Below, one piece after another: positions 26,644-28,409 of a stretch of 30,163 nt of DNA (its first letter is position 1; each line of letters opens with the position of its first letter). Made by a program: the position numbers and the translations under genes. Under the pieces are notes generated by a model that saw only the letters and a list, made by a program, of their open reading frames with translations, ran no database searches and had not been told where the DNA came from. This stretch comes from a virus (lineage: Duplodnaviria > Heunggongvirae > Uroviricota > Caudoviricetes): the IMG/VR virus record IMGVR_UViG_2850796239_000002. One strand, given 5' to 3'.

Positions 26644-26863
26644 TAAAGCAAAAAAATATAAATATTTTCATACAATTCCTTTTATCTATGCTTAGTATCC
26701 TCTTTCGATACCATTTCAGCACCTAATGCTTCCCTTACTTCATCAATGCTCTCAAACTGAGCAACCATATCCCCCCTTTCTTAAACGCAGCCTCACCGCG
26801 TTCTTTATATTGAATAGGAATATAATACCCTTCAAATATTACCCCGTACAGGGTGCGCAGGGT

Positions 26864-28164
26864 CTGAGGGATCCCCACAAAATTACTGCTAATAAACCAG
26901 CACCATATTTCGGTAGGTTCTGGACAGATGGTTTAGAACTGTGCTCAGTACTGTTCGTCTTAAAATAAGTGGCGAGTGTCGAAGAACATTCTTCGCTAAC
27001 GTCAGATATGAGATAACCCGCCGGGATTTAATGCTGTTAGCCTGATATTTCAGGTGTAACCCTTTATTTTCAGCGTGATAACCGAGTAACCACATTACGA
27101 TAGTGCTCAACGTTGCCAGCAGACTCAGAACCAGAATTCTTCCTGTTGAACGACTTTTGCTGGCCCGAAGACCAAATCCGAAGCGCCCGTTCTTTTCATC
27201 ACGAAAGTTTTGCTCAATCTGCATTCGCCGACTGTATAACTTGATGATTTCTCGCGCTCTGAAGTCATTTGTACTGCTGAAGATCAACCAGGCTTCTTTT
27301 GCTGATTTGCTCTGTTCTTTGTCTGTTTTGTTTAAACCACTCTGACCTTTCGAACGTTTCTTTTTTCGCCCTTTTGCCGATTTCTTATAGGTGTAAAAAT
27401 GCCCCCGGATGCTTTTTTTCCTTTCTTTAACCAGCCTTCCAGCCCCCATATATTCCGGTGTTTTACATTCAGGGCTATCCGACACTTTTAACCATCTTTC
27501 AGGCGCGTTATCGAGGCAATACTGAACGTTATTTCTGATCCGACCAATAAAATCCCAGCCCAGAGAAGTAATATGGTGAAACCATGCGCTCTGAAATCCA
27601 GCATCCGTGACAATAATAACCCTGGCATCGGGGGGCAGGGATTGAGCAAGGGAATCAAGGAAATCATGTTGTATCAATGGATTATTTTGTTTTTCAGAAG
27701 GAACAACCTTACTCAATAACGGAATGGAACGCCCGTCACACAGAAGGCTGGCACGAAGAACATGATGCTCCTGGGAGGGATAGCCACTCCAGTCTACGGC
27801 TATTACACATAAAGATAACTGCCGTGTCAGCATTGAAGTGATATTCCTGAAAATCATTGGAATATCGCGATGGAGCGCCTCATTACCCATGAGGCGATCA
27901 ATACGTTTGATCTTATTCTTAACTTGTGCATTACCCGGCAAAAAACGTCCGATACTGGTCAGCGTCAGAGATGCTCCGTTGATTAACGCCACTGTGGCAT
28001 CCATCAGGGCATTTTGTCGGTACTGATGAAATGGTGCTAAGGCATCCCGGAAGAAATTCTGACATACTTTATGAACAGGCATAGCAGTGATCTCATTGAA
28101 TTGTTGGCACAAATCAGTAGATCACATAATGCTATGTCTGTCTCGTTTTCTGGGGATTCCTCAG
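26864..28164 (-). mobile_element. IS4-family IS10-like element, copy 2 (1301 bp, intact), 8/9-bp target duplication GCGCAGGG(T/G), inserted into a second vgrG
   Basis: Termini identical to copy 1; flanks 26855..26863 GCGCAGGGT and 28165..28173 GCGCAGGGG; both flanks are homologous to vgrG sequence around 25766..25788. Confidence 0.8.
26889..28112 (-). CDS. IS10-like transposase (407 aa, intact; track start is TTG, the ATG 10 codons downstream is an alternative)
   Basis: Full-length ORF with similarity to IS10 transposase (e.g. ...IKRIDRLMGN..., ...IQHDFLDSLAQSLPPDARVIIVTDAGF..., ...YSRRMQIEQNFRDEK...). Confidence 0.8.
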   Translation of the reverse strand: MCQQFNEITAMPVHKVCQNFFRDALAPFHQYRQNALMDATVALINGASLTLTSIGRFLPGNAQVKNKIKRIDRLMGNEALHRDIPMIFRNITSMLTRQLSLCVIAVDWSGYPSQEHHVLRASLLCDGRSIPLLSKVVPSEKQNNPLIQHDFLDSLAQSLPPDARVIIVTDAGFQSAWFHHITSLGWDFIGRIRNNVQYCLDNAPERWLKVSDSPECKTPEYMGAGRLVKERKKSIRGHFYTYKKSAKGRKKKRSKGQSGLNKTDKEQSKSAKEAWLIFSSTNDFRAREIIKLYSRRMQIEQNFRDEKNGRFGFGLRASKSRSTGRILVLSLLATLSTIVMWLLGYHAENKGLHLKYQANSIKSRRVISYLTLAKNVLRHSPLILRRTVLSTVLNHLSRTYRNMVLVY

Positions 28165-28409
28165 GCGCAGGGGGGGCTGCACCGGCATTCCCTGCACGGA
28201 CGGTGCCGTCAGGCTGAATGACCTTCCTGCATCAGTGCCGACTCCGGCGTGATGGCTTTATCGCTGCTGGTAAACTGGATATCGTAGCGGAACGGGGTAC
28301 TCAGTTGTTCGCGACCTTCGAAGGTCAGCACATCCACCGGACTTTGCAGGCCGCGAATTTTGAGCTTGTGGTGTGAATGGTCAAAGTTTAAGGCAGGAAT
28401 ATTCATCAT
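28165..28409 (-). pseudogene. vgrG: vgrG N-terminal fragment (second copy), truncated by the IS10-like insertion and an adjacent deletion
   Basis: MMNIPALNFDHSHHKLKIRGLQSPVDVLTFEGREQLSTPFRYDIQFTS... nearly identical to the N-terminus of the first vgrG; only ~23 bp of vgrG homology remain on the other side of the IS (26841..26863). Confidence 0.7.

Follow-up and report, generated by a model that had tools for sequence, protein, structure and literature searches.

How a second vgrG gene came to be reduced to its 5' end, and whether the insertion sequence (IS) now lodged in what remains of it had any part in the loss, is the question raised by the 30,163-nucleotide stretch of DNA analysed here (the window). 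The first-pass annotation had answered that the insertion, together with an adjacent deletion, had truncated the gene, the junction away from the IS end implying a second event such as recombination between the two vgrG copies. The locus is a decaying type VI secretion (T6SS) "vgrG island" of a Shigella boydii-type chromosome. Its features are listed in Table 1, in which vgrG-A and the 296- and 205-amino acid (aa) genes together form what is called module A below.

Table 1. Features of the window, with positions counted from its first letter.
Feature	Position	Strand	Remarks
Prophage tail and baseplate genes	1 to ~16800		
IS debris	17700-20800		includes the first ISSfl1 copy
Type VI secretion vgrG island	~20850 to window end	-	
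308-aa gene	21725..22651	-	
262-aa gene	22724..23512	-	weak M35-like match
vgrG-1	23505..26018	-	
Block X	26019..26837	-	
AT-rich spacer	26019..26181	-	between immunity-like gene and vgrG-1; part of block X
Immunity-like gene	26182..26671	-	162 aa; signal-peptide-like N-terminus; four conserved Cys
Effector 3' remnant	26682..26837	-	last ~49 codons and stop (26682..26684); TIGR02594/CHAP (NlpC/P60 superfamily)
vgrG-2' stump, end	26838..26854	-	last 17 nt, vgrG nt ~246-262, up to the truncation junction (the older event); 26838..26863 together with the left duplication copy
Left duplication copy	26855..26863		GCGCAGGGT; T at 26863 abuts the IS end
ISSfl1	26864..28164	-	IS4 family; 1301 bp; ends CTGAGG...CCTCAG
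vgrG-2' stump, first part	28165..28409	-	first 245 nt of vgrG; contains right duplication copy
Right duplication copy	28165..28173		GCGCAGGGG; CCCCTGCGC in gene orientation
205-aa gene	28454..29071	-	
296-aa gene	29061..29951	-	
vgrG-A, 3' end	29945..30163	-	

Comparison with the island of Escherichia coli 536, in which the order is tssH - vgrG - 296 aa - 205 aa - vgrG - 262 aa - 306 aa - ... - tssM, revealed a colinear gene order and ~95% nucleotide identity on either side of one extra block. Only one vgrG lies between the 205- and 262-aa genes of E. coli 536, and its first 243 nt (L002 8380-8622) match both copies in the window. Relative to that strain, the window thus has an extra 2389 bp at the start of this vgrG, an insertion-with-duplication that consists of the repeated vgrG 5' end together with ISSfl1 and block X. 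The two islands also differ in that the vgrG genes of the window are pseudogenised and the tssM side of the T6SS cluster is lost, IS debris and prophage standing in its place. Arrays of three vgrG genes are known in E. coli (21AR0173).

When ISSfl1 and one copy of the duplication were removed, the two parts of the stump (28409->28165 joined to 26854->26838, minus strand) became colinear with nucleotides 1-260 of vgrG-1 (26018->25759), with ~92% identity and two 1-nt indels. A second vgrG cut down to its 5' end, as first proposed, is therefore what the alignment returns, and the homology, placed by the same annotation at 23 bp beyond the IS, was found to stop at 26838-26841, which is 14-17 nt past the duplication. 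A chance origin of the 23-bp match, with a left flank unrelated to vgrG, was ruled out: the 22-mer ACCCCGTACAGGGTGCGCAGGG is exact at 25763..25784 and 26841..26862, has no third site in the window even at 3 mismatches, and occurred in 0 of 100 shuffles.

The stump begins with an ATG at 28409 or 28406, and a 1-nt deletion near 28220, present also in CP119446 (L005) and PSSR01000003 (L006), closes its frame after 66 codons (ORF 28209..28409). With nucleotides 1-260 (~87 codons) left of a gene that measures 2517 nt when intact in E. coli, the homology does not extend across the gp27-like and gp5-like domains of VgrG (TssI), and no open VgrG frame is retained. Identity of the stump to annotated E. 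coli Vgr genes was 83-91%, with 85-91% for its first part (28165..28409), and the best match among complete E. coli genomes reached only ~91%. Identity of the vgrG 5' ends to E. coli alleles was also considered as a means of telling resident from incoming DNA and was set aside as uninformative, since all of the values compared fell between 80 and 91%.

The intervening element matched annotated ISSfl1 copies of Shigella virulence plasmids at 99.7-99.8% identity, over positions 12-1312 of a 1315-nt query in 66 plasmid records. Its transposase ORF (26889..28112) runs uninterrupted for 407 codons, and the product matched the IS4 family transposase model NF033591 with 362.7 bits, against a cutoff of 152, as well as PF01609 (E 2.5e-18). 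In its 1301 bp, terminal repeats, 9-bp duplication and IS4-family DDE transposase, it is the same as ISSfl1 of Shigella genomes and plasmids, and differs from other insertions of the element only in its location, here a vgrG remnant. The label "IS10-like" given to it earlier is apt only if taken loosely, to mean a member of the IS4 family with 9-bp duplications; the element itself is ISSfl1 and not IS10.

Both copies of the duplication could be read in the window and are identical at 8 of 9 positions, in keeping with the initial description of an intact IS within a second vgrG. Two short-read contigs begin in the same IS end, L013 (found in 6 samples) and L014; both have the window's insertion, but with a duplication that matches at 9/9 positions, reading CCTCAG-CCCCTGCGC-ACCCTG and, when followed further, CCTCAG-CCCCTGCGC-ACCCTGTACGGGGTAATATTTG. 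Because these contigs show the same insertion with an unaltered repeat, the T at 26863 is a private substitution or a sequencing error, with no sign of a complex event. As the duplication directly flanks the IS, and vgrG is colinear once the IS and one copy are taken out, the presence of ISSfl1 in the stump is the result of a simple insertion. Perfect 9-bp duplications likewise accompany other ISSfl1 copies in the window, L005, L016 and L017, and in L018 the duplication shows a one-base offset that leaves its register ambiguous. The same IS/vgrG junction was looked for in E. coli, and none was found.

The other ISSfl1 copy in the window (18925..20224) is inverted with respect to the one in the stump, and a single base within a G-run distinguishes them. 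We considered and rejected an inversion between these copies, which would have separated vgrG-2 from its body: each copy has its own matching duplication, that of the first being the perfect 9-mer CCCTCAGGG, and the site of the first copy is also empty in L005.

Homologues of the ORF of block X were found almost exclusively in S. boydii, and related chromosomes were reached through them. In three of these assemblies, the stump contains no IS and a single copy of the 9-mer, and the junction between vgrG-2' and the sequence that follows, …CCCTGTACGGGGTAAT-ATTTGAAGGG…, is identical to that of the window. In CP119446 (L005), the stump runs uninterrupted through …GCAGCCCCCCCTGCGCACCCTGTACGGGGTAAT-ATTTGAAGGG… into the same block X, and an ISSfl1 lies instead in vgrG-1, in the same orientation and shifted 2 bp further on, its duplication being CCTGCGCAC. 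PSSR01000003 (L006) has ISSfl1 in neither vgrG copy and shows the same junction with a 46-bp tandem duplication across it. DAJVPG010000214 (L015) resembles CP119446 upstream, with an IS-free stump followed by block X. The base-identical junction is thus found in four kinds of genome, and an IS in the stump only in the group to which the window belongs. That three IS-free S. boydii assemblies share this junction indicates, as the simplest order on grounds of parsimony, that the truncation predates the IS and arose without it, the insertion being late and lineage-specific. Comparison with relatives lacking the IS had been proposed at the outset as the way to reconstruct the locus, and it points to truncation first; the initial view that insertion and adjacent deletion had together reduced vgrG-2 is contradicted by the occurrence of the junction where there is no IS.

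The nature of the DNA joined to the stump bears on how the truncation came about. Block X comprises 819 bp with a GC content of 31%, as against 55-60% for vgrG, and searches of 5,426 complete E. coli genomes with it, in both near and distant modes, returned nothing. Its first 156 nt are fused in frame to vgrG at codon ~87 and encode …FEGYYIPIQYKERGEAAFKKGG(D)MVAQFESIDEVREALGAEMVSKEDTKHR followed by a stop codon. A G6 run at ~26770-26775 shifts this frame relative to a G7 allele, and an in-frame S. boydii version of the tail is available as P0005. BLASTP with the tail gave an E value of 2e-10 to residues 163-211 of a 211-aa protein (L007:213-848); the C-termini of L009_189, L011_221 and L010_356 matched with values of 1e-7 to 7e-10, and all of the alignments (2e-10, 7e-10, 6e-9 and 1e-7) reached the last residue of both proteins. 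The L007, L009, L011 and L010 proteins match TIGR02594 (5e-19) and CHAP. In the L007 protein, the TIGR02594/CHAP domain occupies residues 62-151 of 211 and homology to the window begins at residue 163, so the 49 C-terminal codons that are left include none of the catalytic domain.

A protein search with the 52-aa tail alone returned only a 66-aa S. boydii ORF; the effector family was reached by way of the immunity-like homologues and their neighbours, and by a genome scan with a 4-sequence alignment. A search of PDB sequences with the effector gave no meaningful matches, and the effector/immunity DNA of L011 had no match in complete E. coli genomes. Elsewhere, proteins with a TIGR02594 domain have been predicted to be vgrG-linked, peptidoglycan-degrading effectors (PMC13055248).

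Judged from these alignments, the partner at the junction is the 3' end of a gene for a TIGR02594/CHAP cell-wall amidase effector and not vgrG. Homologous exchange between vgrG copies would be expected to yield a clean hybrid vgrG; the effector tail found in its place points to an illegitimate join. The suggestion that two vgrG copies had recombined with one another does not fit this partner, the sequence joined at nucleotide ~260 being the effector 3' end. The accompanying proposal that the rest of vgrG-2, and probably its cargo, had been deleted is largely upheld, except that the last 49 effector codons and the immunity-like gene were kept (26182..26837).

Between the effector tail and vgrG-1 lies a gene for a 162-aa product, which was obtained by removing one T from a T7 run just after the ATG; this run shifts the frame, and the ORF as called covers 26182..26643. 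The protein belongs to a small family, with 13 matches among 1.84 billion representatives, in which alignment revealed four conserved cysteines and an MCDDDGxYGYFF motif, and it had no match in Pfam, NCBIfam or PDB sequences. In four loci, a homologue (E 1e-28 to 1e-30) lies directly downstream of a TIGR02594/CHAP gene. These are L007/L011 (Escherichia sp. MOD1-EC7003 and E. coli, respectively), L008 (Enterobacteriaceae bacterium G50), L009 (E. albertii) and L010. The pair of effector and immunity-type gene is located within a vgrG/T6SS cluster in L008 and L010, the order in the latter being clpV, vgrG, DUF4431, a 640-aa LysM+CHAP protein, a 173-aa gene and an IS, followed by a 356-aa LysM+CHAP protein, immunity fragments, a 402-aa gene and tssM. 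Since it adjoins such effectors in four other loci, the gene for the 162-aa secreted protein is probably the orphaned immunity gene of a TIGR02594/CHAP effector.

The history that we regard as probable is an older deletion within a module, followed by an unlinked, later insertion of ISSfl1 in a decaying T6SS island. An ancestral middle module would have sat between module A and vgrG-1 and consisted of vgrG-2, a TIGR02594/CHAP amidase effector gene (probably with LysM repeats) and a periplasmic immunity gene. One illegitimate deletion of ~3-4.5 kb, a size that allows for the rest of vgrG-2 (~2.25 kb), most of an effector gene (0.6-1.9 kb) and optionally an adaptor gene, would have joined vgrG-2 nucleotide ~260 to the last ~49 effector codons, leaving the vgrG stump, the effector tail and the orphan immunity gene. 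Later, and in the window's lineage only, ISSfl1 entered the stump by cut-and-paste transposition with the 9-bp duplication CCCCTGCGC, as the comparison of genomes shows, and one base of one duplication copy then changed in the window's genome. An intact vgrG-2/effector/immunity module was not found at this position, the 5,426 complete E. coli genomes included. The deletion in situ is thus deduced from its product rather than from a before-and-after pair of genomes, and we favour it over acquisition in one step.

Such a one-step gain, which we consider unlikely without dismissing it, would have brought in a segment running from an effector 3' end through an immunity gene and spacer to the 5' part of a vgrG. 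Homology within the resident vgrG body would have anchored the incoming segment at one end, and its other end would have been joined illegitimately to resident vgrG nucleotide ~260, so that the vgrG 5' end was duplicated and block X trapped; ISSfl1 would have arrived later. The geometry is exactly that expected, with a 243-nt segment that is single-copy in E. coli 536 occurring twice in the window around extra DNA; the stump has the E. coli-type upstream context (205-aa gene and spacer) and vgrG-1 the E. coli-type downstream one. The low GC content of block X and its absence from complete E. coli genomes also accord with acquisition, and homology-facilitated illegitimate recombination has been proposed for the orphan immunity arrays of Vibrio cholerae (PMC5361080). 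By analogy, a stump made by that process may represent a "5'-end displacement" of vgrG comparable with the C-terminal displacement of rhs genes. The published model, however, puts the old tail and immunity gene downstream of the new module and not upstream of a complete vgrG, and the reported frequency of the process lies orders of magnitude below that of homologous recombination (PMC5361080). Moreover, identity to E. coli vgrG 5' ends is not lower for vgrG-1 (86-90%) than for the stump (83-86%), which gives no hint of a resident stump beside a foreign vgrG-1 5' end.

IS10-type elements promote adjacent deletions, and this habit, together with the position of ISSfl1 in the stump just 14-17 nt from the junction, is what speaks for a loss of vgrG-2 driven by the IS. 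We nevertheless hold it to be very improbable that insertion with an adjacent deletion, or recombination between vgrG copies, cut the gene down to its 5' end. Both copies of the duplication are kept, and the junction lies away from the IS terminus, as had indeed been noted at the start; it is shared by the three IS-free assemblies, and its partner is the tail of an effector gene rather than vgrG. The order could in principle be rescued if the IS had come first, the deletion next, and the IS had then been lost precisely from the lineages of L005, L006 and L015, given that precise excision between the 9-bp copies would restore the very empty site seen in L005. Such excision would be a rare event, however, to be placed at the base of a clade that is also marked by shared SNPs and lacks module A, and a simpler order accounts for everything, so that this sequence of events is scarcely to be expected. 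ISSfl1 removed nothing from the locus.

With deletion of the module as the preferred reading, the locus can be set beside systems in which orphan immunity genes have been described. Kirchberger et al. 2017 reported effector displacement in V. cholerae, with orphan immunity genes accompanied by effector 3' remnants (PMC5361080), and Wu et al. 2021 reported recombination at vgrG loci of Agrobacterium (PMC8546570). As in the V. cholerae arrays and Agrobacterium vgrG loci, an immunity-type gene survives although nothing but the 3' end of its effector gene is left, and an apparently illegitimate junction lies beside a conserved T6SS gene, vgrG serving as a recombination-prone landmark. In the window, by contrast, a 260-nt vgrG 5' stump heads the remnant, whose place is upstream of another, complete vgrG module rather than downstream of a replacing effector-immunity module, and the locus is frameshifted, not renewed. 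The arrangement of the displacement model is not found here, the stump being joined straight to the effector tail with only the later IS between.

The reference copy of the first-pass annotation, vgrG-1, is a pseudogene too: relative to the 2517-nt E. coli gene it has lost one nucleotide at each of three places (~25786, 25722 and 25235), and one of these deletions is present also in L006. Homopolymer length changes that differ among genomes were seen in the effector tail and the immunity-like ORF, and no intact reading frame remains in vgrG-1, the stump, the effector tail or the immunity-like gene of the window. Several of the frameshifts in homopolymer runs are specific to the window and could be assembly errors. 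The overall picture is one of ordinary genome decay and not of IS-driven deletion.

For annotation, it follows that the loss of vgrG-2 should not be credited to the IS, and beyond correct annotation the finding has little significance. Shigella pseudogenes interrupted by an IS, vgrG as a recombination landmark and orphan immunity genes with effector remnants are all of known kinds, to which this locus adds one more case. It usefully illustrates how a T6SS decays step by step in Shigella, and it draws attention to an undescribed, small family of secreted proteins of ~165 aa, probably immunity proteins, that accompany TIGR02594/CHAP effectors in Escherichia and relatives. The IS in the stump, the IS in vgrG-1, the lack of any IS, the presence or absence of module A and the 46-bp duplication are possible markers of S. 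boydii lineages.

The sole mildly new point appears to concern the choice of target by ISSfl1. The IS10 target consensus is NGCTNAGCN. The six ISSfl1 target sites that were read do not fit it; each of the six instead begins within a C-run or just behind one, always on the same side of ISSfl1. A conserved C6-C7 run is located at the ISSfl1 site, at vgrG nucleotides ~233-245. It is conceivable, somewhat short of probable and on a sample (n=6) too small for a firm claim, that ISSfl1 has an orientation-specific preference for targets at the start of C-runs and that the C6-C7 run of vgrG is a recurrent hot spot. Such a preference would explain why two S. boydii lineages carry independent, same-orientation insertions of ISSfl1 2 bp apart in paralogous vgrG 5' ends.

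At each of the target sites read here (in the window, with 26855..26863 and 28165..28173 among them; in S. boydii CP119446 at L005 10883..12201; and in the comparison loci L016, L017 and L018), a C-run lies at or just before the start of the ISSfl1 target duplication, towards one and the same side of ISSfl1 in 6/6 cases, which suggests that the element may have an oriented preference for C-run targets. The CP119446 element is an independent insertion in vgrG-1; it has the same orientation as the copy in the window's vgrG stump, vgrG-2', and the homologous positions of the two are 2 bp apart. 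An oriented C-run preference would turn this stretch of vgrG into a hot spot.

The sole difference between the window's second ISSfl1 copy and the stump copy is 1 nt deleted from a G-run of the second copy (opposite 27635); its transposase is thereby broken into two ORFs, of 207 and 198 codons. In CP119446 the corresponding site is empty.

Features of the window and of compared loci (positions in window coordinates)
Feature	Position	Strand	Detail
Second ISSfl1 copy	18925..20224	+	inverted relative to stump copy
Duplication flanking second copy	18916..18924 + 20225..20233		perfect, CCCTCAGGG
Six ISSfl1 target duplications (window and comparison loci)			CCCTCAGGG, CCCCTGCGC, cccc|CCTGCGCAC, CCCCGTACT, CCCCGGTAT, CCCGCGCGG
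vgrG-1	23505..26018	-	pseudogene
vgrG-1 1-nt deletions	~25786 (in C-run), ~25722, ~25235		versus intact E. coli vgrG
Variable tracts in block X	~26770-26775, ~26650-26656, A/T run near 26305		
Tract length variants among S. boydii genomes			G6/G7/G8; T7/T6; T7/T8/about T28

The full-length paralogue vgrG-1 was judged against an intact 2517-nt E. coli vgrG, and only the deletion at 25722 is common to S. boydii PSSR01000003. Homopolymer lengths in block X, the segment with the effector tail and orphan immunity-like gene, also vary between the window and the equivalents in CP119446 and PSSR01000003, and may reflect either real slippage or sequencing error. The T7/T8/about T28 tract is located within the immunity-like ORF, and P0001 has ...YYFFFFFFFFDF.... 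PSSR01000003 additionally carries a 46-bp tandem duplication, GTACGGGGTAATATTTGAAGGGTATTATATTCCTATTCAATATAAA, across the stump/effector-tail junction (L006 9982..10041).

In the S. boydii assemblies CP119446 (L005 ~9551), PSSR01000003 (L006 ~9747) and DAJVPG010000214 (L015 ~1900), the stump directly follows clpV/tssH and begins ATGGGTATTCAGAAT... instead of ATGATGAATATTCCT.... Module A (vgrG-A with the 296-aa and 205-aa genes) is missing in all three, a pattern that fits either a vgrG-vgrG homologous deletion at the very 5' end or acquisition of module A by the window's lineage.

Prophage tail and baseplate genes and then IS debris (1..16800 and 20228..21700) stand in place of the island flank that carries, in E. 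coli 536, a 404-aa gene and tssM. Two ORFs, 20829..21194 and 21213..21470, are possible leftovers of the 404-aa gene.

Homologues of the effector and immunity genes occur elsewhere. In E. albertii (L009, 6634..10470), two 378-aa ISAs1-type transposase genes enclose a truncated TIGR02594/CHAP gene of 189 aa together with its 175-aa immunity homologue, a layout like that of a composite transposon. In Escherichia sp. MOD1-EC7003 (L007), an IS with 79% identity to ISSfl1 directly borders the effector gene at its 5' end. A further orphan copy of the immunity-like gene (L003, 1096..1564; P0004, 54-57% identity) is preceded by an effector tail of just ~13 codons (…AEMVLKEDSEYM, then stop), in an island that also has a symE toxin gene and is bordered on one side by a transaldolase-like gene and on the other by one with a MoCF_biosynth domain.
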